Origin: Ignavibacteriota bacterium
Lineage (GTDB): Bacteria > Bacteroidota > Ignavibacteria > UBA10030
Assembly (NCBI GenBank): GCA_963769605.1
Contig: CAVYML010000003.1
Coordinates: forward strand, 490,562 to 554,561
Length of the DNA: 64,000 nt
Reading direction: 5' to 3'
The notes below the pieces were generated by a model, which saw only the letters and a program-made list of their open reading frames with translations, was not told the origin of the DNA and did not search any database. The translations under genes were made by a program, and so were the position numbers. Shown one piece after another: positions 5,020-54,042 of the stretch (its first letter is position 1; each line of letters starts with the position of its first letter).

Positions 5020-5050
5020 GCCTCACCGACGAATCGGCGGGGCTTTTTTA
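5020..5050 (+). terminator. Candidate Rho-independent terminator after the 3696..4988 gene.
   Basis: Imperfect GC-rich hairpin (gcctcaccgacgaatcggcggggc) followed by TTTTTT. Confidence 0.35.
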
Positions 5051-5515
5051 TTCATATATCGGGCTCCAAACAGGATTAATTACTTTATCATCCTTTAGGG
5101 CTATTCCCGGTTAACAAACTTATCCATAAGTTTTTTTGCTGTCAGGATAGAAGAGAAGTATTTATCCTTGAAAGGATTGAACTATAAGATTCGTATCATT
5201 CAATGTCGTGCATATGGTCTGCGAGATGAAGAATATCTCCGACTCAAGATCTAAACTTGTATGTTGGACAAATAATGTCTGTCTCATTTTGCCAATATTC
5301 ACCCACTCGCAAAGGAGAAGAGCCTTTATTCGGTTTCCTGCCGAATGGATGAGTTTGATTATGCGGCTCGATTACTGCAGGAAAAATTGCAAAAAATGTA
5401 ATCTTGTAAAGAAAATATTCGATATATGTGACAAAACAGCCCTAATGTGGATCTTTTCTCATGGCACAACTGTTGCTTAAATATAAATAAAGAGAGACCG
5501 AAAAAAGGAGAAAAC

Positions 5516-5659
5516 ATGGTCTATATTGCAATTGTCATCGGTTATTGTCTCGCGCTTTTCTTGTTGATTCGCCTTTTTGATGCCATGCATCATTGGGACG
5601 AAGATGTGGATGAAATGATGGATGAAATTCACAAAGAATTAAAGCAGAAAGCAGCTTAG
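5516..5659 (+). CDS. Small hypothetical membrane protein (47 aa).
   Basis: ATG at 5516 with an AAAGGAG RBS. One hydrophobic helix followed by an acidic tail. Confidence 0.3.
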   Translation: MVYIAIVIGYCLALFLLIRLFDAMHHWDEDVDEMMDEIHKELKQKAA

Positions 5660-21000: not shown

Positions 21001-24000
21001 ATCCCACAAAAGCCTGGGGTGGAGCACAGCTTGCTCTCGGCACATCAACAACGAACCTCGCCGATCAAAATATAAATTATATTCAGATGTGGGTAAAAAT
21101 TGTCGCTGGACAACCTACAGTAAAACTTAACATTGATCTCGGCTATATCAGTGAAAAGTCTTATCCTTTAGGCGGGAATACTTTGATGACTGAAGACGGT
21201 TTGGATAATCATGGAATTCCGACCGGTCTTATGCATCAGGATGAGGATGCAGGTATCGACGAATTAAGCGACGATCAGGAGAAACATAAATTTTCGAACT
21301 TCCGCAATGCTTATGCTGGCACACGACTTGCAGGTGCATTTGATAATGATCCATCGGGCGACGATTGGAAGCAGCCGCCAACGAGTATTAACGGGTCGCT
21401 TGACACGGGGGCGACTGCAATATCATTCGATGGATGCAATGGTGTCGAGGGCAATTATCAAAGCGAACTCGGATCGCGTTATCCCGATACGGAAGATTTA
21501 AACGGCGATGGAATTATGAATCCGCTGAATTCGTACTTTGAATATGAATTACCGCTGGACACAAACAATGCCGTCTTCGCGCAATATGTTACGGGAGTGG
21601 GAAATAACGGCTGGCATCAAGTCAGTATCCCTCTCGAATATTTTACGCGCCAGATCGGGAGCCCGACGCTTACCGATATCCAGGACATGCGTATCTGGGT
21701 GACCGGAGCAAGCGGCAAAGTTCTGTTCCGGATTGCGAATTTTAATCTTGTCGGCAACCAATGGAGAACCGAAATTCCGAACGATCCCGTGCTGCAAGTA
21801 AGTGCGGTGAACTATCAAGACAATCCGGATTACACACCCCCTGTTCCGCTTATTGTAGATCCGACCATTACAACTCAGACGGTCTATGAGAATGAGCAAT
21901 CTCTCGATCTTATCATAAGCAATCTCCAGCATGGTGATTCCACCAGAGCGGTAAAACTATTCAGTGCGCATCCGATTAATCTCTTGAATTATCATACGAT
22001 GAAAATGTTTCTTCACGGCGAAACACGAAACGATGTTTCGAAAGGGTACAAAGCTTTTGTGTATAAAGATTCGGCGCATTATGATGTGCGGATTGCCTTC
22101 CGGTTCGGGACAGATTCTTCCAATTATTACGAGTACACCGCTCCGCTAAAACCCACTTGGACAAACAACGATATGATTATCCATTTTGCCGACCTATCTT
22201 CCTTAAAGGCATTACGCGACAGTACGGAGGATGTGCATGGCCCTGTACCAAACGGCCTTCCGGGCGCCACTTATTGGATTAGAGGATTTCCGACATTGAC
22301 TGCCATCCAATATATGGCGATAGAAGTCAAGGATCATGATACGACAAAGAACATAAATGGCGAGGTATGGGTAGATGAACTACGTCTGACGGATGTCGAT
22401 AATACGCCGGGCTCCGCTTATAAACTCGATGCAAATATCAAGCTTGCAGATGTAGCCACTATCGGTTTTTCGCTTTCTCATCTCGGTCCAACCTTCCATT
22501 CGCTGGAGGACCAATTCGGCAACCATACAGACATGCTTTCATGGAGTCTTTCTTCGACGATCAACTTTGAAAAGTTCTTGCCTGAGAGCTGGGCCGGCAC
22601 ACAGCTTACCATGTCATATATGCATTCTGAAAATTATCAAAAGCCGCAGTATGTCCCGGGCTCGGATGTTTTAGTGGAACAGGCTGCGCAGCAGGTTGCC
22701 GCAGCGATTGCAAGGGGAGATACTACTGTGACCGTCAAACCGGACGATATTCGTCTTGCATCACAGACGCTGACCGTGACGGACAGTTACGCTCTTCCTT
22801 CACTTCGGCTCAATATTCCGCTGGATACATGGCTTGTCACAAAGACGATCAATCAGATGATATTCGGTTATTCATACAGCTCTACGTTTCAGCGTTCGCC
22901 GACGGTCGAATGGTCGAAATCCTGGACATGGGAAGCGCATGTATCGTATAATATTCAATTTTCTCCTGCGAATTCTTTTAAACCGTTCCACTGGCTGGGG
23001 AAATTTTTCCTTACAAGTATCTGGCAGGATCTTACGATTTATTTTACACCGAGGAACATATCTGTGACGACCTCCTTCACCCGGAGCCAATCGCAGAGCC
23101 AGACTCGATATTCGGCCACCGACAACCCTCTTGTATATAATCTTACAGCATCGCGGTCTTTAAATTTCACATGGCAATGGTTTGAAGGCAAATATCTCGA
23201 CCTGGGCACGAATTATCAGGTCGCAATCGGCAGTACTCTTTATGATCTTGAAACGGATCGATACGGGAACCAGCGATCCTTCTACGATATCCTGAAAGAT
23301 ATGATCTTAAGTGATCGTCTTATCGACTTCGGCGTCGATCAAAGTTATTCGCAGGGCATAACATGGAATCCTCAAATCAAAATTCCCAATACTACGTGGC
23401 TGGGAAAGTTCATCCGTCCATCTCTGCAGTATTCAACTCAGGTACAGCTGGGCGGACAATATCGGCTCCGGCGCTCTGGGGAAAAGTGCGGCCACGAACA
23501 GTTCATTTCGTTTTTCGACAGATATCGACCTGCACTCCATTAGTTCGGCTCTCTGGTCGTCGGATGGATCGTCATCGCCGCTGCCGAATGATACGAGCCG
23601 AAGCCGCGGAATCAAGAAGGCGTCGCAGCAGCTCTCAGCGTTGACAAAATTTCTTTTCAAAGACTTGCTCCTCGACTTTGACAGATTGACGTTCAGTTTT
23701 TCGAATGGCAACAATATCCAAAACACAGAGGTCACGGGTGGAGAAGGGTTCGCAAATCTTTTTGCGCGTGCTCCGTTTATCCAATCTTCCCTGCCGGAAA
23801 ACGGTCCATCGCTTCTCTATCAACTCGGTGTGTCTTCAGATCCTAATGGAAGAGTCGTGCTGGGTACGAAAAATTCTTTCCCGTTTATTACCGGATATAC
23901 CATTCCCGGATTGCGTGCAGACACCGGATTGCCGACGGATATGTTTTCACAAAATAATATGATCACGGTAGGCACCGGCAGGACTCTCTGGGAAGGAGCC

Positions 24001-40152: not shown

Positions 40153-41268
40153 TTACCTTGCATAGGCAAGTTTTAATGTTTTAACTTCCTTCTGATTTGA
40201 TACCGAACCCTCTATCGATAAACGGGCGAAGTATATTCCGCTTGATACATTATGCGGCGCCCATGTCACAGAATGAATCCCTTCATATTGCTGCGAATTC
40301 ACAAGCTCACCGACTAATCTGCCGAGCATGTCGAAGATAACGAGATGCACTTGAGAATATTCCGTCAATTCGTACCGAATGGTCGTGGCTGGATTGAAAG
40401 GATTGGGATAAGAACCGAGGACTGTCGACTGCCCGGCGTTCCCTCCTGCGAGGAGTTGACCGGTTCCGTTTGTATTGTGGAGAACAAAAATTTCTTCTCT
40501 GCCGCTGAAAGTATCGTTGGATGTCGTATCAAAGAAAAAGAACTGACTATCCTCTGTTGCCCCGATGGGTAATCCGCCGTTCGGGCAGTTCGTTATAAAA
40601 AATGTTACAGGCTTGTCGACGTCCGTTTTTAACAGGTTAACGGTAACAGTGGCAATATTATATAACCCTGATGCGAGTGTGTGGTATTCAGGGAATTGAA
40701 GAATAAGCCAATTGATGCGGCCCTGCCCCGGCGGGACAAAATAGTTGGGTGTCCATGCAGTATCGAGATCGCTGCCTTTTTCTACCGAAACGAATTCAAC
40801 TGCGCCGGTATCCGACGCTTGAATCCGGCAGGAATATCCGTTACAGTGTCCGCCTTTTCTATTGCCATCGTTATATCGGATATATATCTTGAGTTTAATA
40901 TTCTGAGAGGACTCTTTATAACCCTGCCTGATTTCGTAGCCGGAAGAATAATCCGGAGCGTTGACAAAGGACGGGGATACGGTAAGAGTTGTGGCAGTGT
41001 TGCTGATAATACTGCGAATTTGTCCTGATCCGCTGCCGCTTGTAATATGAATGTAATTGCCGGCCCATTTATTAAGACTCCAATTTTGATTTGCATCTTC
41101 TATGATTTTGTCAGTCGCCTGTGTAATTGTTCCTGCGCTGCTCTTATCGATCATGATTGAAGAAAATCCAATCTGACCGCTCTGCGCGATGAGAAAAGCG
41201 GTATGCGAAATAGTCAGGAGAACAAAGACAACAATAAAAATATTAAGTGATATCAATTTGGATTTCAT
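40153..41268 (-). CDS. Secreted T9SS substrate: signal peptide plus a C-terminal Por_Secre_tail (CTD) sorting domain.
   Basis: The C-terminus ...GSYPNPFNPATTIRYELTEYSQVHLVIFDMLGRLVGELVN...HSVTWAPHNVSSGIYFARLSI...KTLKLAYAR matches the TIGR04183-type CTD. N-terminal signal peptide. Confidence 0.75.
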   Translation of the reverse strand: MKSKLISLNIFIVVFVLLTISHTAFLIAQSGQIGFSSIMIDKSSAGTITQATDKIIEDANQNWSLNKWAGNYIHITSGSGSGQIRSIISNTATTLTVSPSFVNAPDYSSGYEIRQGYKESSQNIKLKIYIRYNDGNRKGGHCNGYSCRIQASDTGAVEFVSVEKGSDLDTAWTPNYFVPPGQGRINWLILQFPEYHTLASGLYNIATVTVNLLKTDVDKPVTFFITNCPNGGLPIGATEDSQFFFFDTTSNDTFSGREEIFVLHNTNGTGQLLAGGNAGQSTVLGSYPNPFNPATTIRYELTEYSQVHLVIFDMLGRLVGELVNSQQYEGIHSVTWAPHNVSSGIYFARLSIEGSVSNQKEVKTLKLAYAR

Positions 41269-41300
41269 GGTCTTTTCCTTTTTTCTTCTGCATTAGAGAG

Positions 41301-41317
41301 TGCCACTCTTGTGCCAA
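41301..41317 (-). promoter_or_regulatory. Candidate sigma-54 (-24/-12) promoter for the T9SS-CTD gene.
   Basis: The minus strand reads TTGGCAC-AAGAG-TGGCA. The GG to GC spacing is correct, with one mismatch to TTGCA. It lies about 33 nt upstream of ATG 41268. Confidence 0.35.
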
Positions 41318-41690
41318 TGCAAAGAAGGGCTGCAAATCTGTTCGGCAAAAAAAAACGATCAATTCGGAGGAAAAAAAGAAAGATGCTGAAAGGACAAAAG
41401 AATCAGTACTGGACAAATTGTATTTTCGGCAAATCGGGTCAGATCATGAAGAGACGCAGACGAAAAGCCGGCCTCGCGGGAATTCGTATCTCAATTGTGT
41501 TAAATTACGCTGAGCAATTGCTGTCTAAAATTATTTGTTCGATGAAAACGGACATGGACATTTCTGTCCGGCTATTTTTAATGTTGCGCGAGGTGCGGTA
41601 AATTGTAAATTCACCAAAGAGGATCAGATTAATCAGAATTGAGGACGAACGAATTCGAAGCCGCGCATCATCTATGTCGGTAAAACATTC

Positions 41691-42224
41691 TTAAGAATGT
41701 ATTTCGCACAATGACGATGCAACAGGGAAATTATGGATATTTGCCTTCGGTATTTCTCTGAGTTGTTGAAATCGCTTCAATTTACCGCGAAGAGCCGCAA
41801 GCAGATTTTGTTCTTTTATAGGTTTGACAAGGTAATCATCTGCGCCCATTTCTTTTCCTGTTCGAATCATCACATCATCATTAAGTCCGCTTAAAAAAAT
41901 GAATGGAACCTGCTTCAAATGCTCGATTTCCTGGACTTTCTCAAAAAAAGTGAATCCTCCCATCGTAGATGTTTCGAGACTGATGTCGCATAGAATAATA
42001 TCAGGCGTGAATTTCTGCAGAAGAACATAGGCTTCATCCGACGTGCTCAGCGGCATCACTTCAAATCCGTCGGATTCAATGCTCAAACTGAGAGCTGCAA
42101 GCAGGTCTTTATCATCATCGATGACAACAACTTTGGGCGGCAGTCTGATTTCATTGTCATTCCCTTTTCCACTGGAATCGGCAATTAGCGAAAAGGGGGC
42201 TCGCTGTTGAAACTTGTTTGAAAT
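41691..42224 (-). CDS. Single-domain response-regulator receiver. The full REC domain has no canonical start codon and is in frame with the upstream ORF across a single TGA.
   Basis: REC motifs KVVVIDDD...DIILCDISL...KP. The only ATG (42086) would delete beta1 and the acidic pocket. The frame is open back to the TGA at 42227..42225. Confidence 0.5.
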   Translation of the reverse strand: MSNKFQQRAPFSLIADSSGKGNDNEIRLPPKVVVIDDDKDLLAALSLSIESDGFEVMPLSTSDEAYVLLQKFTPDIILCDISLETSTMGGFTFFEKVQEIEHLKQVPFIFLSGLNDDVMIRTGKEMGADDYLVKPIKEQNLLAALRGKLKRFQQLREIPKANIHNFPVASSLCEIHS

Positions 42225-42647
42225 TCAACCTGCCGTGGGAATGTTACTTTGCTGGACATGAGGAACTGTGCTTGTAACTGACAAAGCAATCTGATTGATA
42301 TTCTGAGGCAATACCACGGAAACTTGCGGCAATGATTTTTTGTCGCCTTCTCTTCCGGCGTTTATTACGAGCTCAGGTTGACTTTTTATTTGTTCTTTTT
42401 GTCGCTGTGTTTTCGATTGTTCGGCGATTAAACCACGTATTCGTTCTTCAAGTGCGAACGCATAAGCGTTTTGCGGGTCGATCATTTTTGCAGATGCCGT
42501 CTCAAGGAGCGCTCTCTGCAAATCTTTGGCTTTTATCAATTGGTCGACGCGCTTAAGGACTTCACTTGCCATTTTTCTTTTTTCATCAAGTTCTTTCAAT
42601 TGAGGCTGTCCTTCTATGAATACTCTATGGTTTATATTTGCCGTCAT
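42225..42647 (-). CDS. Hypothetical coiled-coil protein. It may be the N-terminal part of a fusion with the downstream receiver.
   Basis: 140 aa, charged and low-complexity. Its TGA stop is in frame with the REC ORF. Confidence 0.45.
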   Translation of the reverse strand: MTANINHRVFIEGQPQLKELDEKRKMASEVLKRVDQLIKAKDLQRALLETASAKMIDPQNAYAFALEERIRGLIAEQSKTQRQKEQIKSQPELVINAGREGDKKSLPQVSVVLPQNINQIALSVTSTVPHVQQSNIPTAG

Positions 42648-42676: not shown

Positions 42677-43237
42677 TTATACATTGATCATTGCTTTCAG
42701 TGATACCATTTTACCCCAATAGGAGCCTATTGATTCAGTTTTATATTGTTGGGCTTTTGAAAAACCGGAAAGCGCCGCCTGAATTCTATCTACGGATTGT
42801 TCGGCATGCGACAATTCAAGAATAACCGTTTTATTATTGAGAGCCGCTTTACGTGCTGCCTCCATAGAAAGCACAATGACTGCAAGAGGATTGTTGATAT
42901 GATGCTGTAAACCGCGCACGGTTTCCTGCATTGTCAAAAGTTGTGTTTGGTGGATCTCCAGTTCTTTTTCCGCGAGAATTCGCTGTTGTTCGCTTTCATA
43001 GAGTTTCGTTCGTACTTGAATGATTTTAACCAATGCCACGGAAAGAAACCACATAAAAGGAAGAGCGGAAAATATCGTAAAAATATCGTAAAAGCCGAGT
43101 GGGAACGCTTTTGCCTTCATAAAAAAATGAATGATTGAAACAAGCAAATAGGCATAGATCACAAAACCGGATAAGACGGCCGGGTAACGTGAAAAATAAT
43201 TATTTGCAATTTGTAAAAATCGACGTATAATTCGCAT
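42677..43237 (-). CDS. Membrane-anchored protein carrying only an NtrB-type DHp (HisKA) domain, with no ATPase domain.
   Basis: Two N-terminal TMs, a coiled coil, and the H-box GLQHHINNPLAVIVLSME (compare NtrB AHEIKNPL). It ends about 60 aa later with no HATPase_c. Confidence 0.6.
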   Translation of the reverse strand: MRIIRRFLQIANNYFSRYPAVLSGFVIYAYLLVSIIHFFMKAKAFPLGFYDIFTIFSALPFMWFLSVALVKIIQVRTKLYESEQQRILAEKELEIHQTQLLTMQETVRGLQHHINNPLAVIVLSMEAARKAALNNKTVILELSHAEQSVDRIQAALSGFSKAQQYKTESIGSYWGKMVSLKAMINV

Positions 43238-43473
43238 AACAATCCTCCTTTAAGGTGTTCTTTCCGGATGTCAACTAATTCTGTCGCAAATCCTATGCCA
43301 TCCATTCCGCCGCTTTAGATGTAACTGCATTCATTGCCGGCATTCGACGACGAACCGGGGATTTGATACTGAGGAGGAAAAATAGTAGTTTCATGCTGGA
43401 GGCAGGGACTTGCGTACTTGCTTTTCCGGGGTTGCAGGAGATATTTCTTTATTATTTTAAAGGGGACAAACGC

Positions 43474-44139
43474 ATGAAGAATAAGCAAACCAGAATATTG
43501 ATCGTGGATGATGACCCGGGCTACGCAGAAGGAATCTCCATCCTGCTTGAGTCTGAAGGTTATTTTTGCGATGCAGTGAATGATGCTAAGGCCGCAATAA
43601 AGAAACTTGACAACAAGAATTTTGAGATTCTTCTTGTCGATTGGCAAATGCCTGAAATGAGCGGTGTAGAGCTTATTGAGCGAATACGATCACATCCCGA
43701 TCACCGGCAAAAATATATCATCATGGTCTCCGGAAAGGGCGCTCTTGAAGATAAAGTTACTGGAATGGACGTAGGAGCTAATGATTATTTGGTCAAACCA
43801 TTTGAATCGCAAGAACTGCTCGCACGAATCAGAGCCGCAATTCGCATCCTCGAATTGGAGCAAGAGCTTATTGAACAGGAAAGAAGAAGTACTGTTCTTG
43901 AAATGGCTTTATCTATTACGGATAAAATCGGCAACCCGCTGTCTGCAGCGTGCTTTTTGCAGCAATATATTCATGAAAACGCACAAGATTATACAAAAGT
44001 CAAACAATCGATTGATGATTTAGGAACAGCGCTGCTTGAAATACAGGAACTCTTAAAAAAATATCAGTCGATAAAGAATCCGAAAACGATTCCAGCGGCT
44101 ATGGGCAAAAGAATGATCGATCCGGAAAGCGAAAAATAG
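43474..44139 (+). CDS. Response regulator: REC plus a C-terminal DHp-like helical domain in which the phospho-His position is Asp.
   Basis: ATG 43474 with an AAAGGGGA RBS. REC ILIVDDD...LVDWQMPEMSG...KP. The C-terminus LSITDKIGNPLSAACFL parallels the H-box of the 42677 protein. Confidence 0.7.
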   Translation: MKNKQTRILIVDDDPGYAEGISILLESEGYFCDAVNDAKAAIKKLDNKNFEILLVDWQMPEMSGVELIERIRSHPDHRQKYIIMVSGKGALEDKVTGMDVGANDYLVKPFESQELLARIRAAIRILELEQELIEQERRSTVLEMALSITDKIGNPLSAACFLQQYIHENAQDYTKVKQSIDDLGTALLEIQELLKKYQSIKNPKTIPAAMGKRMIDPESEK

Positions 44140-44215: not shown

Positions 44216-45583
44216 ATGAAACAAATCATTAAAGTCCTTGTCGTTGACGACGATGAATCATACCGTGAAGGATTAAAAAGCATTCTCGAAGCAGAAGGAT
44301 ATGAAGTAAAAACTGTCGTCGATGGTATTACGGCTATCAACATTATGCAGTCGAGTCAGTTCGATCTCATACTTCTCGATATTGTCATGCCGATTGTAAG
44401 CGGTATGGATGTATTGAAAAATATCAAGAACAGTTTCTATGAGTGCGAAGTAGTCATGCTGACGGGAGAAAATGATATTCATACGGCCGTTGAAAGCATC
44501 AAACTTGGCGCATACGATTATCTCCTTAAACCATGTTCGGGAACAGAAATTCTTAATACGATCAGCAGAGCGGTCGAGCGAAAACGACTTCTCTTGCAGA
44601 ATAAAGCGCTGAAGACAGAACTTGCAAGAGTTGCTGCATCCACACAGATTGTAACGCAGAATCCGGCAATGCTGGAAATACTGAATTTAGCCATGAAAGT
44701 CGCCCCGACCGATGCGACCGTATTGATTCAAGGGGAAAGCGGGACTGGAAAAGAACTTATTGCAAATTATATCCATAGCAACAGTCTGCGGAAAGAACAG
44801 CCGTTCGTTGTGCTCAATTGTGCTTCCATGCAGGAAACATTGCTTGAGAGCGAACTTTTTGGGCACGAAAAAGGTGCTTTTACGGATGCAAGCAAGGAAA
44901 AACAGGGCCTGGTAGAAATTGCCAATGGGGGAACACTCTTTCTTGATGAGATAGGAGAAATATCGCCTGTTATTCAACCGAAATTGCTGCGGTTTGTTCA
45001 GAGCGGAGAATACCGGAGGCTGGGAGGAACCCGGACATTGCAATCCGACGTAAGAATTTTATCTGCGACCAATAAAAATCTTATTGAGGAAGTGAAGCAG
45101 GGACGTTTTCGGGAAGATCTTTTATATCGGATGAACGTTTTTACTTTGGAATTGCCTCCTTTAAGGAATCACAAAGAAGACATTCCATTTCTTGTCGATA
45201 ATTTTTTAAAGCGGCGATATGGCAAAATAAATGGATGGGAAGTTGCAGAGGATGCGCTTACAGCGCTTCGTCAATATGAATGGCCCGGCAACGTGCGTGA
45301 ATTGGAGAATGTTATAGAGCGTGCGACTATCGTTGCCGATGAACGAACGATACAGTCTAAAGACCTGGCTGTTCTTCTGAGATCGCGGGTATTGAAAAAC
45401 GAATTTGCAGAATCAGGAGATATAGGAATTGGCAAGCTTATTGCACTAAGGGAAATAGAAAAAGTTCATATTTCAGGAGTTCTCAATGCGGTAGGATGGG
45501 ACAAGAATCTCGCGGCAAAAATTCTCGATATTAATATCAAAACACTTTATATAAGAATCCAGACTTATGGACTTACACATTAA
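44216..45583 (+). CDS. Sigma-54-dependent transcriptional activator of the NtrC family (REC-AAA+-HTH).
   Basis: REC, Walker A GESGTGKE, the GAFTDA (GAFTGA) motif, and a C-terminal Fis-type HTH. Confidence 0.9.
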   Translation: MKQIIKVLVVDDDESYREGLKSILEAEGYEVKTVVDGITAINIMQSSQFDLILLDIVMPIVSGMDVLKNIKNSFYECEVVMLTGENDIHTAVESIKLGAYDYLLKPCSGTEILNTISRAVERKRLLLQNKALKTELARVAASTQIVTQNPAMLEILNLAMKVAPTDATVLIQGESGTGKELIANYIHSNSLRKEQPFVVLNCASMQETLLESELFGHEKGAFTDASKEKQGLVEIANGGTLFLDEIGEISPVIQPKLLRFVQSGEYRRLGGTRTLQSDVRILSATNKNLIEEVKQGRFREDLLYRMNVFTLELPPLRNHKEDIPFLVDNFLKRRYGKINGWEVAEDALTALRQYEWPGNVRELENVIERATIVADERTIQSKDLAVLLRSRVLKNEFAESGDIGIGKLIALREIEKVHISGVLNAVGWDKNLAAKILDINIKTLYIRIQTYGLTH

Positions 45584-45738: not shown

Positions 45739-46362
45739 ATGATTACAAAGCAGTCATTAAAAGTACTAATCGCTGAAGATCAGGAAGCCCTCATTCTGCT
45801 GATTCAGCTTCAATTAGAAAAGATCGGACACACAGTTATCGGCAAGGCAATAAATGGTCTTCAAGCGGTTGCACTTGCAGGTCAACTCCGGCCCGACGTG
45901 ATCTTAATGGATATCGAGATGCCCGAAATGGACGGCCTTGAAGCTGCTCGTCTGGTTCAGGAAAAGTATCCCTGTCCTGTAGTGCTGCTTACTTCACACG
46001 ATGAGCCTGAAATGATAAGACGCGCCAGTCAGATAGGTGTCGGAGCTTATCTCCTGAAACCTCCAAGAGCAGGGGAAATTGAACGCGCGATGATTATGGC
46101 GGTTGCACGGTTTGCCGATCTTACGGAACTGCGCCGCCTGAATAACGAATTGAAAATAGCTCTTGAGAATGTGAAGACATTAAGAGGGTTGCTGCCGATC
46201 TGTGCAAGCTGTAAAAAAATCCGGAACGATAAGGGATATTGGGAGGCCGTGGAAGGATATTTCACCAAACACAGCGAAGTCCAATTCTCTCACGGCATTT
46301 GTCCCGATTGCATCAAAAAATATTACCCGGAGTTTATACCGAAGATGTCAAAAAAAGATTAA
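45739..46362 (+). CDS. Response regulator: REC plus a C-terminal 4-Cys (CxxC...CxxC) zinc-ribbon-like domain.
   Basis: REC LIAEDQ...ILMDIEMPEMDG...KP. Tail LPICASCKKIRNDKGYWEAVEGYFTKHSEVQFSHGICPDC. Confidence 0.75.
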   Translation: MITKQSLKVLIAEDQEALILLIQLQLEKIGHTVIGKAINGLQAVALAGQLRPDVILMDIEMPEMDGLEAARLVQEKYPCPVVLLTSHDEPEMIRRASQIGVGAYLLKPPRAGEIERAMIMAVARFADLTELRRLNNELKIALENVKTLRGLLPICASCKKIRNDKGYWEAVEGYFTKHSEVQFSHGICPDCIKKYYPEFIPKMSKKD

Positions 46363-46406: not shown

Positions 46407-46434
46407 CCCGAAGACATTGTCAAATGTCTTCGGG
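46407..46434. promoter_or_regulatory. Perfect 12-bp inverted repeat (hairpin or palindrome) at the 5' edge of the duplicated kinase leader.
   Basis: cccgaagacatt-gtca-aatgtcttcggg. The homologous copy at 50643..50666 keeps the pairing through two compensatory changes. Confidence 0.45.
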
Positions 46435-46699
46435 ATGGTCGCGGATGCTGTAGCTTCGAAAAGATCTAATAATGTTTTCGGGATAGTTTCAGATGTTCCG
46501 AGATCATCCGCGACGATCCGTCGCGGCTACAGTGCGATCAATCCTATTTGGTGAAAATACAATTCTAAGTCAGTGTGATCAGCCCTCAAATTCCGGTTTT
46601 TTATCGGAATTCAATATATATCAGGCAAATCCTCCTCTTTCCCGCATTCTAAAGACTGGCATATCGTGTGTAAAATATACGGAAAGGCAGTAGAGAAAA
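46416..46699 (+). repeat. Copy 1 of the duplicated non-coding leader upstream of the paralogous hybrid kinases.
   Basis: About 80-85% identical to 50651..50982. Shared blocks: attgtcaaat, ggtcgcggatg(c/t)tgtagcttcgaaaa, caatcctatttggtgaaaatacaattctaa, taaagaNctggca. Confidence 0.65.
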
Positions 46700-49600
46700 A
46701 TGGAGGATATGCAAATGCGAAAAATCATAAAATTGCCGGCGCTGGTGACGATGACATCGGTCATTTCGATCGTCCTTTGGGAGCAGACAAATTTTTCAAG
46801 TCTTTTCAATGAGCATCTCTGGCTCCTAGGAGCCGCAGTGATCTTCCTTGCATTGATTATTTCTCCCCTTTTTGGATTCTTTTGGTACCGTCAACGTATG
46901 CGATACTACGGCCTCCAATATGAAATGGCACAAAAAGAAAATCGTATGCGCGATGAATTGAAGGAAAGCGAAAACAAATCAAAGGAAATACTTGAAGATG
47001 CCGCGGTGGGATATCATGAATTAGACACGAAAGGACGTATCGTCCAAACGAGCCGCGCTGAACTTGCGATGTTAGGATACACGCAGGATGAAATGCTGGG
47101 AGAATATATCTGGAAATTTGTCGAGGAAGAAGAGGCGCTGCAGATGAAAGTGCTCGCAATACTGAGTGGAAGGATGTCCCCATCTGGAGATGCGTACGAG
47201 CGAACATTCCGGCGGAAAGACGGAAATACTTTTTTTGTTTTAATGGAAGACCGTCTGCTGAGAGACGACGATGGAAAGATTATTGGCATTCGTACGACCA
47301 TCGAGAATATCAACATGCAGAAACAGGCAAAAGAAAGCATCCAGGAAAGCGAAGAGAAGTTCCGCGCGATCGCAACACTGGCAAACGATGCCATTCTTTT
47401 GATGGATGATGATGGTGCGATTTCAATGTGGAATCAAGCGGCAGAAAAAATCTTCGGTTATACGGAGGAAGAGGCGCTGGGTAAGACGCTTCATAAACTT
47501 TTAGTTCCGACCCAATACTACGAAAGTTCTACTCACGGATTCGAGCGCTTCCGGACGACGGGTGAAGGAAGTGCAATCGGTAAGACGCTCGAGCTGTCGG
47601 CGCTTCGGAAAGACGGCGCTGAATTTCCGATTTCACTTTCCCTCTCTTCTTTTAAACTGAACGGAAAGTGGAATGCGGTCGGCATTATTCGAGATATAAC
47701 CGAGCGCAGGCACGCGGAAGAGGAACTGCAGGAAAGCGAAAATAAATACCGATGCATTTTTGAAAATGTGCAGGATGTGTATTACGAGACATTGATCGAC
47801 GGCACGATACTCGAAATTAGTCCTTCCATCGGGTATATATCGAAAGGACAGTACAGCAGGAATGAGCTCATAGGAAAATCGGCAAACGAGTTTTATTCCA
47901 ATGATGATGAACGAGAGGGTCTCCTTTTGGCATTAAAGGAGCGCGGAAGTATTATGGATTTTGAAATAACTATGAAGAACCGGGATGGTTCATTCATTCC
48001 CTGTTCTATATCTGCAAAAATCCAATTCAATGCTCAAGGCGCTCCAGCAAAAATAATAGGCAGCATTCGAGATATTACTAAACGTAAACGGGTGGAAGAG
48101 GCATTGAAGGTAAACGAACTGCGTTTTCGCTCACTGTACGAAAATACCACAATCGGTCTTTATCGAACGACACCCGATGGAAATATACTTCTCGCAAATC
48201 CGGCATTAGTAAAAATGCTTGGCTATAAGTCTTTTCAAGACCTTGCCCAAAGAAACCTTGAAAAAGATGGTTTCGAACCTTCCTATCAGCGTAAAGAGTT
48301 TCTTGGAAAAATCGAAAGAGACGGCGAAGTGAAAAATCTTGAGTCAACATGGATAGATCAGGATGGCGCCACCATCGTTGTTCTGGAGAACGCTCGCGCT
48401 ATCCGGGATTCTCAAAATAAAACTATTTTTTACGATGGAACAGTCGAGGACATAACCAATTGGAAGCGAGCGGGAGAAGCATTGGCCAAAGAACATAATC
48501 TTCTTCAAATGCTCATGGATAATATTCCTGACGGTATTTATTTCAAGGATACGGAAAGCCGTTTTATTCAAGTTAATATGGCTCAGGCCCGTCATCTTGG
48601 TTTGACCAATCCCGAAGAAATGATAAACAAGACAGACTTCGATTTTTTCAGTGAAGAACACGCACGGCCGGCGTATGAAGATGAGCAGGAAATTATGCGC
48701 TCCGGAATACCAATAGTGGGAAAAGCGGAAAAAGAGATATGGCATGATGGGAAAGAAGGATGGGTTTCCAGCACCAAGATGCCTCTTCGCGATCATGAGG
48801 GGCAAATTATCGGAACATTCGGTTTATCGCGGGACATAACCGAGGCCAAACAGATACAGAACGCATTGAAAGAAGCCAAAGAAGCAGCAGAAGCCGCAGT
48901 CAAGGCAAAATCAGAATTTCTTGCCGTCATGAGTCATGAAATCCGCACGCCGATGAACGGCGTAATCGGCATGACCGACCTGCTTGAACATACCGAGCTT
49001 ACAACCGAACAAGCAGACTATGTCGAAACAATCCGTGTGAGCGGAGAGACATTGCTTGCCGTTATCAACGACATTCTCGATTTTTCTAAAATTGAAGCGA
49101 GCAAGATAGAATTAGAGGAAGAGCCGTTTGAATTGAATGTATGCATAGAAGAAGTTTTCGATCTCCTTGCGCCTCGATCGCGTCAGAAAAATTTGGACTT
49201 GTTGTACCGGATCGATCCAGATATCCCGCAGTTTATTGTGGGAGACCGGCTCCGTTTGCGCCAGATACTATATAACCTGGTCGGCAATGCTGTTAAATTT
49301 ACGGAAAAGGGAGAGATTATGATTTCTGTCGGATTGAATAGTCAGAACAATAAAGCGCTCGAGCTTCTCTTTGCAGTGAAAGATACTGGCATTGGAATTC
49401 CTATTCATAAACTTGAAAAATTATTTAAGCCTTTCTCACAGGCGGATTCATCCATCACGCGGAGGTACGGTGGTACGGGTCTTGGCCTTGCAATCAGCAT
49501 GCGCTTGGTGGAACTCATGGGCGGAAGCATCCGGGCGGAAAGCATAGAAGGAGAGGGTTCAAATTTCGTTTTTACAATGAAGACGTCTGTTCCTCAAAAC

Positions 49601-50542
49601 GAATTGAATATATCCAAATCGTATCTTCATGAGAACGAATTTGAACTTGCAAACAAACGGGTGCTCATTGTCGATGATAATAAAACTAATCTTCAGATCC
49701 TCAAAGAATTGTGTCAGGTATGGAAACTTATTCCACGTACTACTTCTTCGCCGGCTGAGGCCCTGAGATGGATCACGCGGGAAGATCCTTTCGATCTTGC
49801 GATCTTCGATCTTCAAATGCCTGAAATGGACGGTATTCAGCTTGCAACCGAAGTACGAAAGCAGCGGCCAAAAGAAGCGCTTCCATTTATTCTCTTTTCG
49901 TCTCTTGGAACGAATGTCACAGGATCGGATATACCCGCCGATCTATTCCAAAAACAGATATTTAAACCGGTAAAACAATCGCAGCTTTTTAATGCTATTC
50001 TTGAAGTTCTTGCCGGAAAAAAATTCCTGCAGGAAAGAAGAATGAAGACTGTGCAAAAAGAAGAGGGGATTGCTCTTGGACATGCACTGGTTAAAATATT
50101 GATTGCAGAAGACGGTTTCGTCAATAAAAAAATCCTTCTGCGGATGTTGAAACAAATCGGATGCTATGCAGATGTGGTGTCCGATGGACTGCAGGCAGTG
50201 AAAGCAGTTGAGGCCGTTCATTATGACATCGTCTTCATGGATGTGCACATGCCTGAAATGGACGGACTCGAAGCAACAAGGAAGATCGTCAATTCCCGTA
50301 TGGCAAACGAACGTCCGAAGATCATTGCGCTTACGGCGGATGCGATGTCCGGAGATAAAGAAAAGTGCATCGAAGCCGGAATGGACGATTACATCACCAA
50401 GCCGGTGCGGCTGGAGGAAGTCATTTCTGCGGTAAAGCGATGGGCTCCGGCTCAGGCAAATTTTACAGCGGAAAGTGATAAGAAAGAGAAACAATTCGCT
50501 GTCGGTGAGACTTGCACTTTTGGTCTTGCCAAAGCCGGATAA
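46700..50542 (+). CDS. Hybrid sensor kinase HK1: 2 TM, five PAS, HisKA, HATPase, two receivers.
   Basis: 1280 aa. H-box [14 protein letters not shown]. Two canonical C-terminal REC domains. Paralog of the 50983 gene, with two extra PAS modules. Confidence 0.9.
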   Translation: MEDMQMRKIIKLPALVTMTSVISIVLWEQTNFSSLFNEHLWLLGAAVIFLALIISPLFGFFWYRQRMRYYGLQYEMAQKENRMRDELKESENKSKEILEDAAVGYHELDTKGRIVQTSRAELAMLGYTQDEMLGEYIWKFVEEEEALQMKVLAILSGRMSPSGDAYERTFRRKDGNTFFVLMEDRLLRDDDGKIIGIRTTIENINMQKQAKESIQESEEKFRAIATLANDAILLMDDDGAISMWNQAAEKIFGYTEEEALGKTLHKLLVPTQYYESSTHGFERFRTTGEGSAIGKTLELSALRKDGAEFPISLSLSSFKLNGKWNAVGIIRDITERRHAEEELQESENKYRCIFENVQDVYYETLIDGTILEISPSIGYISKGQYSRNELIGKSANEFYSNDDEREGLLLALKERGSIMDFEITMKNRDGSFIPCSISAKIQFNAQGAPAKIIGSIRDITKRKRVEEALKVNELRFRSLYENTTIGLYRTTPDGNILLANPALVKMLGYKSFQDLAQRNLEKDGFEPSYQRKEFLGKIERDGEVKNLESTWIDQDGATIVVLENARAIRDSQNKTIFYDGTVEDITNWKRAGEALAKEHNLLQMLMDNIPDGIYFKDTESRFIQVNMAQARHLGLTNPEEMINKTDFDFFSEEHARPAYEDEQEIMRSGIPIVGKAEKEIWHDGKEGWVSSTKMPLRDHEGQIIGTFGLSRDITEAKQIQNALKEAKEAAEAAVKAKSEFLAVMSHEIRTPMNGVIGMTDLLEHTELTTEQADYVETIRVSGETLLAVINDILDFSKIEASKIELEEEPFELNVCIEEVFDLLAPRSRQKNLDLLYRIDPDIPQFIVGDRLRLRQILYNLVGNAVKFTEKGEIMISVGLNSQNNKALELLFAVKDTGIGIPIHKLEKLFKPFSQADSSITRRYGGTGLGLAISMRLVELMGGSIRAESIEGEGSNFVFTMKTSVPQNELNISKSYLHENEFELANKRVLIVDDNKTNLQILKELCQVWKLIPRTTSSPAEALRWITREDPFDLAIFDLQMPEMDGIQLATEVRKQRPKEALPFILFSSLGTNVTGSDIPADLFQKQIFKPVKQSQLFNAILEVLAGKKFLQERRMKTVQKEEGIALGHALVKILIAEDGFVNKKILLRMLKQIGCYADVVSDGLQAVKAVEAVHYDIVFMDVHMPEMDGLEATRKIVNSRMANERPKIIALTADAMSGDKEKCIEAGMDDYITKPVRLEEVISAVKRWAPAQANFTAESDKKEKQFAVGETCTFGLAKAG

Positions 50543-50650: not shown

Positions 50651-50982
50651 ATTGTCAAATATTATCCAAAGGTCGTCGCGGATGTTGTAGCTTCGAAAAC
50701 ATCTGATATTGTTTTCAGGATGGTCTCAGATGCTCACGAGATTATCCGCGACCACCCGCCAGAAGATGAAGCAGGTCGGGCAAGACGGTCGCGGATACAG
50801 AGTTATGTCTCGCGTGTTGCGTCAATCCTATTTGGTGAAAATACAATTCTAACATAGTGCGGTTTATAATTCAAATTCCGAATATTCATTGGAATTTAGC
50901 TGTTCCGGACAAATCTTTCTCTTATCCGATTTTAAAGATCTGGCACACCGTATGCAAAACATAAGAAAAGACTGTAGATCAA
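50651..50982 (+). repeat. Copy 2 of the duplicated leader.
   Basis: Homologous to 46416..46699, with an insertion of about 45 nt. Confidence 0.65.
50941..50956 (+). promoter_or_regulatory. Candidate sigma-54 promoter upstream of HK2.
   Basis: TGGCAC-ACCGT-ATGCA: one mismatch to TGGCAC-N5-TTGCA and correct spacing. It lies 27 nt upstream of ATG 50983. Confidence 0.4.
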
Positions 50983-53900
50983 ATGGAGGATCTGCATATG
51001 CGTAAAATTATAAAGATACTAGCACTCGTAACGGTCACGGCAATCGCTGCCATAGCACTCTTGGAGCAGACGAATATTATCAGTCTTTTCATTGAGCATC
51101 TCCGGCTCTCAGGAATCTTTGTGATCTCACTTGCACTGACTATCTCTCTCTTTTTCGTTTTCGTCTCGTATCGTCGACGCATACGATATTATCACCTGCA
51201 ATACGAAGCTGAAAAAAGGGAAAATCATGCGTATGAAGAGTTGAAGGAAAGCGAAAACAAATTCAGAGAAATATTTGAAGATGCACCAGTGGGATATCAC
51301 GAAATTGATGCAGAAGGCCGCATTGTACAAATGAACCGTACTGAACTTGCGATGTTAGGATATACGCAGGATGAAATGTTGGGAAAATATATATGGGAAT
51401 TTGTCGATGAAGAGGAAGCAATGCAGCAGTCAGTGCTCGCAGCACTGAGCGGGCGAATATCTTCCTCAGCAGATGCGTACGAACGAACATTCCGGCGGAA
51501 AGAAGGAGGAACATTATTTGTTCTCATGGAAGATCGCCTCTTAAGAGACGGCGATGGAGAGATAATTGGTATTCGTACGACCATTGAAAACATCAATGTG
51601 CAAAAACAGACAGAAGAGAGCATTCGGGAAAGTGAAAAAAAATACCGCAGAATCTTTGAAAATATTCAGGATGTCTACTATGAGACATTGATCGACGGTA
51701 CGATACTCGAAGTCAGCCCTTCTGTTGAGATTGTATCGAAAGGACAGTATCACAGAAATGAGCTTATAGGAAAGTCGATGTTCGATCTATATAATAATAT
51801 AGAAGAACGACATGGTCTCCTGTCGGCATTACAAGAGCGTGGAAGTGTTACGGATTACGAAATAACGCTTAAGAACCGGGACGGCTCGCAAATTCCATGT
51901 TCTGTTTCGGCAAAAATCCAATTCAATGCTCAAGGCAATCCGGAAAAAATCTTCGGAAGTATGCACGATATCACCGAACATATGCGAGCGGAAGAATCTC
52001 TGGCAAAAGAGCACAATTTACTTCAAACGCTCATGGACAACATCCCGGACGGTATCTATTTCAAAGATACAGAAAGCCGTTTTATTAAGGTCAACAAGGC
52101 TCAAGCCCGTCACTTACGTTTGACTAATCCTGAAGAAATGATAAACAAGTCGGATTTTGATTACTTCAGTGAAGAACATGCGCGTCCGGCGTATGAGGAT
52201 GAACAGGAAATTATGCGCTCAGGAGAGCCGATAGTAGGGAAAGAAGAAAAAGAGAAGTGGCTCGATGGGAAAGAAGGATGGGTCTCCAGCACAAAGATGC
52301 CTCTCCGTGATCACGAAGGACAAATTATCGGAACATTCGGCTTATCGCGTGACATCACCGATGCTAAACGGATGCAGAGTGCATTAAAAGAAGCCAAAGA
52401 AGCAGCGGAAGCTGCGGTCAAAGCAAAATCGGAATTTCTTGCCGTCATGAGCCATGAAATCCGCACGCCGATGAACGGCGTGATCGGCATGACCGACCTG
52501 CTTGAACGCACCGAACTTACTCCCGAACAAGCGGACTATGTCGATACAATTCGTGTAAGCGGAGAAACCTTACTCTCTGTCATCAACGACATTCTCGATT
52601 TTTCTAAAATTGAATCGAGCAAGATAGAATTAGAGGAAGAGCCGTTTGAATTAAACGTATGCATAGAAGAAGTATTCGATCTTCTTGCGCCCCGTTCACA
52701 GCAAAAGAATTTGGATCTTCTGTATCGGGTCGATCCGGAAATCCCCGAGTTTATTGTGGGGGACCGGCTGCGCTTGCGCCAGATTCTGTATAACCTTGTC
52801 GGTAACGCCATCAAATTCACGGAAAAAGGAGAGATTGTTGTTTCTGTCGGATTGAATCATCAGAACAAAAAAGAGATCGAGCTTCTCTTTGCGGTGAAAG
52901 ATACAGGTATTGGAATTCCTATCCATAAACTTGAAAAATTATTTAAGCCTTTCTCACAAGCGGATTCATCGATAACGCGAAGGTACGGCGGCACAGGACT
53001 TGGCCTGGCAATCAGCATGCGGTTAGTGGAACTCATGGGCGGAAGCATCCGTGCAGAAAGCGTAGAGGGAGAAGGCTCAACCTTTATTTTTATAATAAAG
53101 ACGACTATTCCTCAAAGCGAATTGAATATTTCAAAAACATTTCTTCATGAGAACGAATTTGAACTTGCTAACAAACGTGTGCTTATTGTCGATGATAACA
53201 AAACTAATCTTCAGATCCTCAAAGAATTGTGCCAGGTATGGAAACTCATCCCGCGCACTACTTCTTCGCCGGCTGAGGCTTTAAGATGGATCATGCGGGG
53301 AGATCCGTTCGATCTTGCAATCTTCGATCTTCAAATGCCGGAAATGGACGGTATTCAGCTTGCGACCGAAGTACGAAAACAGCGGCCAAAAGAAGTACTT
53401 CCATTTATTCTCTTTTCATCTCTTGGAACGAATGTCAAAGGATTGAACATACCCGTCGATCTCTTTCAGAAACAGATATTCAAACCGGTTAAACAATCGC
53501 AGCTCTTTGATGCTATTCTGAAAGCTCTTGCAGGAAAAGAATTACTGAGGGAAATAAGAGTTAAAGCTGTTCAAAAAGAATTGACAGAGAATACACCGAT
53601 CAAAATCTTGATTGCGGAAGACGGGATTGCCAATCAAAAGGTTCTCTTGCGGATGTTGAAACAAATCGGCTGCACCGCGGATGTTGTACAAAACGGATTG
53701 GAAGTGATAAAAGCAGTTGAAGCTGTTAGATATGATATCATCTTTATGGATGTGCATATGCCTGAAATGGACGGACTCGAAGCAACAAGGAAGATTGTTA
53801 ATTCCCATTTGGCAAGCGAGCGTCCGAAGATCATTGCGCTTACGGCAGATGCGATGTCCGGAGATAAAGAGAAGTGCATCGAATCCGGAATGGACGATTA

Positions 53901-54042
53901 CATTACCAAGCCGGTACGGTTGGAGGAAGTCATTTCCGCAGTGAAACGCTGGGCTCCGCTTCAGTCAAAACCTGCCGTGGACAATGATGGAAAAAAGAAA
54001 CAGCATGCTGTTGGTGAAACTCCTATTTTCTATCTGGCATGA
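50983..54042 (+). CDS. Hybrid sensor kinase HK2: 2 TM, three PAS, HisKA, HATPase, two receivers.
   Basis: 1019 aa. Collinear with HK1, with 85-90% nt identity over the C-terminal 2 kb. Confidence 0.9.

Follow-up and report, generated by a model that had tools for sequence, protein, structure and literature searches.

Predicted sigma-54 promoters link duplicated hybrid kinases and a secreted cargo gene in an uncultured Ignavibacteriota lineage

We analysed a stretch of 64,000 nucleotides from an Ignavibacteriota genome (the window; assembly GCA_963769605.1, contig CAVYML010000003.1, positions 490,562 to 554,561 of the forward strand), in which the gene for an enhancer-binding protein lies between a gene for a secreted protein with a type IX secretion system (T9SS) C-terminal sorting domain (the CTD gene) and two tandem hybrid histidine kinase genes (HK1 and HK2). 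The two-box elements upstream of these target genes are probably genuine -24/-12 promoters of sigma-54 (RpoN) and would form one local regulon with the enhancer-binding protein. An initial annotation of the same DNA had proposed a sigma-54 regulon that joins the T9SS cargo and the duplicated kinases to the signalling cluster. The main idea of this proposal is upheld by the conservation of the cores, by a 26-nt upstream motif that they share and by the adjacent activator with its GAFTDA loop.

The -24/-12 cores in the window and in orthologous loci

The three cores and the genes that they precede are as follows.

50941-50956, plus strand: predicted sigma-54 promoter core of HK2, TGGCAC-ACCGT-ATGCA (TGGCACACCGTATGCA), with GG at 50942-43, GC at 50954-55 and a predicted transcription start near 50967
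46657-46672, plus strand: sigma-54-type core of HK1, TGGCAT-ATCGT-GTGTA (TGGCATATCGTGTGTA), with GT replacing GC at -12
41301-41316, minus strand: predicted sigma-54 promoter core of the CTD gene, TGGCAC-AAGAG-TGGCA, with a predicted transcription start near 41290
46715-50542, plus strand: HK1, a hybrid PAS histidine kinase
50998-54042, plus strand: HK2, a hybrid PAS histidine kinase with two receiver domains (by Pfam), a shorter paralogue of HK1
50985-51000, plus strand: Shine-Dalgarno sequence GGAGGA (50985-90) and HK2 start codon ATG 50998 (MRKII...)
40153-41268, minus strand: the CTD gene, encoding a 371-aa secreted protein with a signal peptide, an all-beta domain without assigned function and a T9SS type-A C-terminal sorting domain

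All three core positions given by the initial annotation (50941-50956, 46657-46672 and 41317-41301) were borne out when the sequence was read, the minus-strand letters from 41317 to 41301 being TTGGCACAAGAGTGGCA. The HK2 and CTD cores each carry one mismatch to the pattern that we scored, TGGCAC-N5-TTGCW, and their GG and GC dinucleotides are 10 nt apart, the exact register of the sigma-54 consensus; the HK1 core departs from this register at the -12 C.

We counted matches to this pattern throughout the window with no mismatch, at most one and at most two, using 100 shuffles for the class with at most one. Perfect matches number two where 0.02 are expected, and there are seven sites with at most one mismatch where 1.80 are expected, a count attained by one of the 100 shuffles. 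Three of these seven near-consensus sites (5462, 41301 and 50941) are intergenic, on the coding strand and 40-55 nt before a start codon that bears a Shine-Dalgarno sequence, and another three (9895, 21317 and 45430) lie inside open reading frames (ORFs). By a rough estimate, only about 3-4% of strand positions fall within 100 nt before a gene start, and finding three of seven sites there by chance would be unlikely, on the order of 1e-3. A consensus scan for sigma-70 promoters and terminators between 41200 and 51100 found no coding-strand sigma-70-consensus promoter in the three leaders. Rfam, searched at gathering thresholds for the whole window and at E values up to 1 for the HK1 leader, returned two tRNAs and otherwise noise, with no known riboswitch or leader RNA among the matches.

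For comparison we assembled 171 loci (2.04 Mb), the majority of them centred on unrelated paralogues of the activator. The host is uncultured, and the nearest genome matches to the window are metagenome-assembled genomes (MAGs) of the class Ignavibacteria. Locus L001 belongs to 'Ignavibacteriae bacterium fen_1254' (88% identity of the activator protein) and L002 to an Ignavibacteriales MAG (74%), and an NCBI 'Bacteroidota bacterium' MAG encodes a protein with 100% identity to the CTD protein of 371 aa. The upstream region of the CTD gene was aligned from ten distinct lineages (the window, L001, L085, L137, L084, L086, L002, L163, L164 and L166), a set that reaches down to 55% protein identity. 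TGGCAC is invariant in all ten, while the flanks have diverged and the spacers read AAGAG, ACAAG, ACTAC, AAAAC, GCTAC, GGCAG, ATTAG, ATGCA and GTGGA. Nine lineages have T[G/A]GCA as the -12 box, L002 being the exception with TAGTA. The 11 specified positions of the core reach an information content of 1.87 bits, while the spacer has 0.60 and the preceding 40 nt have 0.59. Such a distribution of conservation is what a core promoter with two boxes should leave in this alignment.

The kinase-type pattern, TGGCAY-N5-RTGCA, is likewise kept in all four of the other orthologous cassettes that precede a kinase gene or a small receiver gene. The cores are:

HK2 in the window: CTGGCACACCGTATGCA
L001: CTGGCATATCGTGTGCA
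L089: CTGGCACATCGTGTGCA
L085:15708: CTGGCATATCGAATGCA
L085:14538, ahead of a small receiver gene: CTGGCATATCGTATGCA

These leaders appear consistent with the sigma-54 model, without being decisive.

The boxes might alternatively be operators of an ordinary transcription factor, for example a response regulator that binds an 11-bp-spaced direct repeat TGGCAC-N5-TGGCAC, with transcription starting from an unrecognised housekeeping-sigma promoter. Four of the CTD-gene orthologues indeed have TGGCAC in both boxes, spaced by one turn of the helix, and Ignavibacteria have no established consensus for housekeeping promoters, such that a sigma-70 scan may miss one. However, the second box reads RTGCA in the kinase promoters and TAGCA in half of the CTD orthologues, and so does not repeat the first, and the positions that are kept are limited to the T, G, C and A of the sigma-54 -12 element. 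The distance to the start codon is fixed, as for a core promoter, and the module holds a sigma-54 activator and no winged-helix regulator. Operators of this kind are therefore a very improbable explanation.

The initial annotation placed the HK2 core 27 nt before the ATG, a distance that refers to the first in-frame ATG (50983) and not to the start that is conserved among orthologues. ATG 50983 overlaps the Shine-Dalgarno sequence and has no counterpart in L085; L089 has TTG at the conserved start position. The conserved kinase start is the second ATG in both copies (50998 in HK2 and 46715 in HK1), preceded by GGAGGA, and because it is this start that orthologues share, the distance from the -12 GC of HK2 to the start codon is 43 nt. 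Measured from the first T of TGGCAC, the start codon follows at 44-60 nt in all orthologues.

Pyrimidine-rich stretches just before the -24 boxes are complementary to the Shine-Dalgarno region (46625-46640 with 46697-46712, and 41381-41361 with 41294-41274 on the minus strand). The ribosome-binding site could be masked in read-through transcripts and unmasked in transcripts initiated by sigma-54. This complementarity is weakly conserved beyond the closest relatives.

The shared upstream motif and the local activator

The window has exactly three copies of the 12-mer GAAAATACAATT, one each upstream of HK1, HK2 and the CTD gene, and alignments extend it to a 26-nt motif, CCnnTTTGGTGAAnnTACAATTy. 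We trained a position weight matrix (PWM) for this motif on orthologous sites and scanned the 64-kb window with it, taking shuffled sequence as the null. Four strong matches were found, all of them in the three promoter regions, and the next match scored 16.7 against a null maximum of 15.9. The distal copy at the CTD gene scored highest in the window although it was outside the training set. The matches, together with the block that lies between motif and promoter and the activator gene, are as follows.

50827-50852, plus strand: candidate enhancer (upstream activating sequence, UAS) of HK2, CCTATTTGGTGAAAATACAATTCTAA; PWM score 34.2, 114 nt start-to-start before the -24 box, conserved in L001, L089 and L085
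46543-46568, plus strand: candidate UAS of HK1, identical to the HK2 copy
41412-41437, minus strand: proximal candidate UAS of the CTD gene, CCGATTTGCCGAAAATACAATTTGTC; 121 nt start-to-start before the -24 box
41597-41622, minus strand: distal candidate UAS of the CTD gene, CCTCTTTGGTGAATTTACAATTTACC; 306 nt before the -24 box, PWM score 35.8
50873-50897, plus strand: intervening block between the UAS and the -24 box, recognised in the alignment; an imperfect palindrome, AAATTCCGAATATTCATTGGAATTT, with a GAATwwTCAT core
44216-45583, plus strand: enhancer-binding protein with REC, a sigma-54 interaction AAA+ domain with a GAFTDA loop, AAA_lid_14 and HTH_8

Across the 171 loci, motif scores of at least 19 are confined to orthologous module loci, and the motif travels with orthologues of the local activator gene. 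Behind most of them stands a -24/-12 match, 102-131 nt away if the copy is proximal and 252-306 nt away if it is distal; three lack such a match in the 330 nt scanned (the distal copy of L001/L081, L164-1898 and L162-32). The distal UAS of the CTD gene is conserved in L001, L002, L084-L086, L137 and L163. Start-to-start distances from the motif to the -24 box cluster near 102, 111-114, 121-122 and 129-131 nt, which is suggestive, but we did not retain strict helical phasing, the sample being too small. The motif itself was also considered as a housekeeping promoter and rejected, as its TTTG and TACAAT elements are 7 nt apart, which is neither the -35/-10 spacing nor the Bacteroidetes -33/-7 spacing.

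The activator at 44216, described as NtrC-like in the initial annotation, was confirmed as such by Pfam, which places REC (PF00072, 6e-30), Sigma54_activat (PF00158, 2.7e-68) and HTH_8 (PF02954, 1.3e-08) in the NtrC-like order. Its contact loop reads ...FGHEKGAFTDAS..., and the GAFTDA in it is conserved in all orthologues of the activator and common among related activators in the compared loci. This change of the fifth residue from G to D is a natural functional variant of the sigma-54 contact loop, known from FlgR of Campylobacter (PMC3162934). In every orthologous locus the activator gene sits between the cargo and kinase promoters. Since no other protein of the conserved module has a DNA-binding domain (by Pfam and NCBIfam), we infer that the 26-nt motif is the enhancer of the activator.

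The conserved module occupies both strands. One strand encodes a membrane protein with a DHp domain only (42677-43237), a 140-aa protein and a receiver protein, and then the CTD gene; the other encodes a receiver and coiled-coil protein, the activator, a receiver protein with a Cys-rich tail, and then the kinases. The CTD protein has the features of a T9SS type-A cargo, namely a sorting domain (PF18962 at 36.0 bits with a cut-off of 27, TIGR04183 at 39.5 bits with a cut-off of 23), a hydrophobic N-terminus and a SprA encoded in the same window (18003-23543), which also encodes LptF/G and numerous PAS kinases. The family of the CTD protein is narrow. Its N-terminal domain has no relative in Pfam, nor in the PDB by a profile search of PDB sequences, and its AlphaFold2 model is poor (mean pLDDT 60).

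The intervening GAATwwTCAT block has a similar counterpart, GAATAATCAT, in the upstream alignment of the CTD gene; it is present in both promoter types and weaker than the 26-nt motif. It may be a site for an architectural protein or a second activator site, and its matches to the IHF consensus (WATCAANNNNTTR) are only partial. On the opposite strand, each kinase leader has a sigma-70-like promoter, TTGAAT-17-TAGAAT, that shares sequence with the 3' end of the motif (50874-50846 and 46589-46562, minus strand); the HK2 copy also has the TG of an extended -10 element.

It is conceivable, if unlikely, that the promoters depend on sigma-54 while the 26-nt motif binds some other factor (a repressor, an architectural protein, or an activator whose gene lies outside the module) and the 44216 protein acts on other sites or other genes. 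The motif has little dyad symmetry, the conserved palindromic block nearer to the promoter could be the true activator site, and in the kinase leaders the motif overlaps the opposite-strand sigma-70-like promoter. However, CTD-type sites lack such a sigma-70-like match, the motif is confined to loci with orthologues of this activator, at a constant distance from the -24 box, and no other protein of the conserved module is a candidate DNA-binding protein.

Under the local regulon that we favour, each unit would consist of the 26-nt UAS, the A/T-rich GAATwwTCAT block, a TGGCAY-N5-(T/R)(G/A/T)GCA core, a leader of 20-30 nt with the Shine-Dalgarno sequence, and the start codon. One unit would drive the gene for the T9SS-secreted protein, and a duplicated unit HK1 and HK2; in other lineages the same cassette would serve a small receiver gene or an operon of CTD gene and kinase. 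Sigma-54 holoenzyme would wait on the -24/-12 boxes as a closed complex. Once phosphorylated through the neighbouring phosphorelay, the activator would bind the 26-nt motif by its HTH_8 domain, oligomerise and loop over the A/T-rich intervening block to the promoter, where ATP and the GAFTDA loop would bring about the open complex. Since the kinase genes are among the targets, we also propose positive autoregulation. Sigma-54 dependence, the motif-binding protein, the start sites and the feedback loop are all predictions from sequence.

Several observations weigh against such a regulon. Sigma-54 promoters rarely lack the -12 C, yet it is replaced in HK1, in L002/L161 and at orthologues of the 5462 site. 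The kinase leaders are few and fairly close to one another and discriminate weakly between boxes and spacer (1.76 against 1.71 bits). The weak dyad symmetry of the 26-nt motif means that binding by a dimeric HTH_8 protein is not self-evident. Two of the near-consensus sites in the window serve no gene (21317 in sprA and 37827 antisense to a tRNA gene). Finally, rpoN was found neither by Pfam among all large ORFs of the window nor in the 10 kb beyond its right end, and a tblastn search of the window and 160 loci (about 1.9 Mb) with an approximate E. coli RpoN sequence, which is a weak query, gave no match.

Sites with at most two mismatches are not enriched (23 against 25.9 expected), so that the near-consensus class alone is informative. 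This lack of enrichment and the intragenic position of some near-consensus sites would fit core matches that arose by chance and have no promoter function. Set against the enrichment of near-perfect sites, their conservation over ten lineages and the fixed partner motif, chance is an extremely unlikely explanation. As for rpoN, the gene is presumably present in the genome, because the activator gene is, and sigma-54 and its activators co-occur near-universally in diderm bacteria that bear lipopolysaccharide (PMC3162934). LptF/G and SprA, both encoded in the window, also count in favour of the sigma-54 model. A literature search for sigma-54 in Ignavibacteria or Melioribacter yielded nothing usable.

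The duplicated kinase leaders

HK1 and HK2 form a tandem duplication that includes the leader (46417-50542 against 50651-54042), with a nucleotide identity of 72-82%; HK2 is about 260 aa shorter than HK1 and has fewer PAS domains. We regard the duplication as lineage-specific because the closest relative, L001, has a single kinase gene, collinear with HK1. The core of this L001 orthologue is TGGCATATCGTGTGCA, with GTGCA as its -12 box, and among kinase-type cores GTGTA is found in HK1 only.

The initial annotation had called the HK1 core degenerate. This copy alone has the C-to-T change at -12, which is real, but a loss of function does not follow from it, because a base other than C occurs at this position in promoters that are otherwise maintained and apparently the sole one of their gene (L002/L161 and L170). 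The -12 box is TAGTA at the CTD gene and ATGAA at the receiver gene in L002/L161, and orthologues of the 5462 site read TTGTA in L170 and TTGAA in L169. Judged by its sequence, the HK1 promoter may be dead, weakened or normal.

It is plausible, though somewhat doubtful, that the GT at -12 has inactivated the HK1 promoter, in which case HK1 would be expressed only by read-through from the activator operon or be turning into a pseudogene, and HK2 would be the regulated copy. HK1 is the sole kinase-type promoter with a T at this position where its direct L001 orthologue has C, and expression by read-through is plausible given that in L085 and L087 the kinase gene directly follows the receiver gene and has no promoter of its own. 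Nevertheless, the HK1 reading frame is intact, as is its UAS, which is identical to that of HK2, strong hairpins lie between the receiver gene and HK1, and GT or GA at -12 is found in other lineages in promoters that appear to be the only ones of their gene.

The leaders also contain copies of GTCGCGGAT, which the initial annotation had described as direct repeats and possible enhancer sites. The copies are present in both leaders, but in inverted as well as direct orientation (46438 plus, 46506 minus and 46520 plus, the last with one mismatch, in the HK1 leader; 50675 plus, 50744 minus and 50788 plus in the HK2 leader), and with one mismatch allowed the sequence is not enriched window-wide. 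A role as enhancer is not upheld, as the L089 and L085 leaders lack the repeats while retaining both the promoter and the 26-nt motif, and as the repeats prove to be arms of a dispersed palindrome. The two elements are:

46433-46535, no strand assigned: nested palindromic element in the HK1 leader, with arms GTCGCGGAT / ATCCGCGAC / GTCGCGG
50671-50800, no strand assigned: palindromic element, HK2 copy, interrupted by a 30-nt insertion

In the HK1 leader, segment 46400-46545 forms a very stable Y shape, a fold much more favourable than those of its shuffles (z = -7.3), and the L001 palindrome (L001:12193-12285) has the same Y-shaped layout with a different internal sequence. Related palindromes, CTGTAGCCGCGAC...GTCGCGGCTACAG, lie downstream of unrelated genes without such promoters (L171:15669-15750 and L083:2862-2880), and arms of the dispersed element, CTGTAGC(C)GCGAC / GTCGCGGCTACAG, are present in several intergenic regions of the lineage. 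We read these palindromes as copies of a dispersed REP- or MITE-like element, which might act as a transcript-end structure.

Further cassettes were seen in related loci. An enhancer with a -24/-12 core stands ahead of a small stand-alone receiver gene at L085:14426-14553 and at L002:11497-11614, the latter with the core TGGCATATCCTATGAA and GA at -12. In more distant relatives (L161:4952-8069, L163:7001-10183 and L164:7001-10183) the CTD gene is followed within 20-50 nt by a PAS kinase plus receiver gene. As the kinase gene directly follows the CTD gene there, cargo and kinase appear to form one operon behind a sigma-54 promoter.

Known systems and other sites in the window

The predicted design is an ordinary, canonical one of sigma-54 and enhancer-binding protein. 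Systems of the NtrC/glnAp2 and AtoC/ZraR types share with it a -24 GG/-12 GC core and an activator composed of a receiver, an AAA+ sigma-54 interaction domain and a Fis-type HTH. If the candidate UASs and targets are what they seem, the likeness would extend to activator sites at about 100-150 bp before the start, with another farther away, and to autoregulation through two-component genes among the targets. The window activator is most similar in NCBIfam to AtoC, NtrC and ZraR, in each case below the equivalog cut-off, and is an orthologue of no named activator. It differs from these types in its loop (GAFTDA rather than GAFTGA) and in its targets, which are a T9SS cargo gene and hybrid kinases instead of nitrogen or fatty-acid genes; the weakly symmetrical window motif (TTTGGTGAAnnTACAATT) is unlike NtrC or NifA sites.

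The GAFTDA variant is shared with FlgS/FlgR of Campylobacter and Helicobacter. The window activator matches NCBIfam FlgR at 3e-102, below the cut-off, and the small membrane protein of the module has a weak FlgS-like DHp match. FlgR, however, controls flagellar genes, whereas the module has none nearby. Helicobacter FlgR is devoid of a DNA-binding domain (PMC3162934), unlike the window activator with its HTH_8 domain and conserved upstream motif. In Flavobacterium psychrophilum, a sigma-54 promoter (SM4) verified by mutagenesis drives the remFG-sprCDBF operon, which includes the T9SS cargo SprB (PMC9723704). The parallel is a -24/-12 promoter before the gene of a T9SS-secreted surface protein within the Bacteroidota/Ignavibacteria group. 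The two differ in organism class and in cargo, an adhesin in the case of SprB against a 371-aa protein of unassigned fold here, and SM4 has neither a defined enhancer motif nor an adjacent dedicated activator or kinase module.

What appears to be new is the definition of the candidate enhancer motif and the lineage-restricted module; the relaxation at -12 is interesting but unproven. Current understanding of sigma-54 regulation is unchanged. The analysis offers a concrete regulon for an uncultured lineage related to Ignavibacteria, with an activator and its likely motif, three or four promoters as targets and one secreted protein as output, and a second case in the Bacteroidota/Ignavibacteria group of predicted sigma-54 control of a T9SS cargo. 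The recurrence of a base other than C at -12, together with the duplicated pair in which HK2 has GC and HK1 GT, would amount to a natural experiment on how strictly the -12 element is recognised. A more speculative idea, which we think rather unlikely, is that the unit of about 170 bp, from the 26-nt motif over the GAATwwTCAT block to the -24/-12 core, is a portable cassette, repeatedly duplicated before various signalling genes (the hybrid kinases, a small receiver gene, an operon of CTD gene and kinase) to give a self-amplifying phosphorelay with one T9SS-secreted protein as its sole output outside signalling, and that sigma-54 of this lineage tolerates T or A at -12; the tolerance is suggested because several otherwise maintained promoters carry GT or GA.

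Other near-consensus sites were noted in the window. The site at 5462-5477 (plus strand) is a perfect consensus, TGGCACAACTGTTGCT, 38 nt before a conserved ORF (5516-5659) that has a strong Shine-Dalgarno sequence and encodes a hydrophobic protein of 47 aa; an intrinsic terminator (5020-5050) lies ahead of the site. Its orthologues keep TGGCAY and TTG, with the -12 C replaced, and the conserved block upstream of this site (AATGTAATCTTGTAAA) differs from the 26-nt motif, which hints at another activator. The second perfect consensus, TGGCACACGACTTGCA at 21317-21332 (plus strand), is on the sense strand within the ORF of sprA, which encodes part of the T9SS translocon, with no obvious start codon downstream, and may be an intragenic sigma-54 binding site. 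At 37842-37827 (minus strand), TGGCAC-TAACT-TGGCA(C) has boxes of the CTD type; it is located in a 740-nt gap between tRNA-Thr and tRNA-Ser genes and points antisense into tRNA-Thr, with no credible ORF downstream.

A weaker candidate is found inside the module itself.

43285-43300, minus strand: candidate sigma-54 core TGGCAT-AGGAT-TTGCG (TGGCATAGGATTTGCG), 48 nt before the gene of the DHp-only membrane protein

The operon behind it comprises 42677-43237, 42225-42647 and 41691-42086. Most orthologues keep its -24 box, and the -12 GC is present in L001 and L137 only.

Some of the neighbouring signalling proteins have unusual features. The response regulator encoded at 45739-46362 (plus strand) ends in a Cys-rich tail, CASCKKIRNDKGYW...HGICPDC, that has no Pfam match. 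The membrane protein encoded at 42677-43237 (minus strand) has a HisKA-like H-box (HHINNPL) and no ATPase domain, and the C-terminal segment of the receiver protein encoded at 43363-44139 (plus strand) resembles an H-box without the histidine (ITDKIGNPL). These last two proteins could be Spo0B-like phosphotransfer or phosphatase components for the hybrid kinases.

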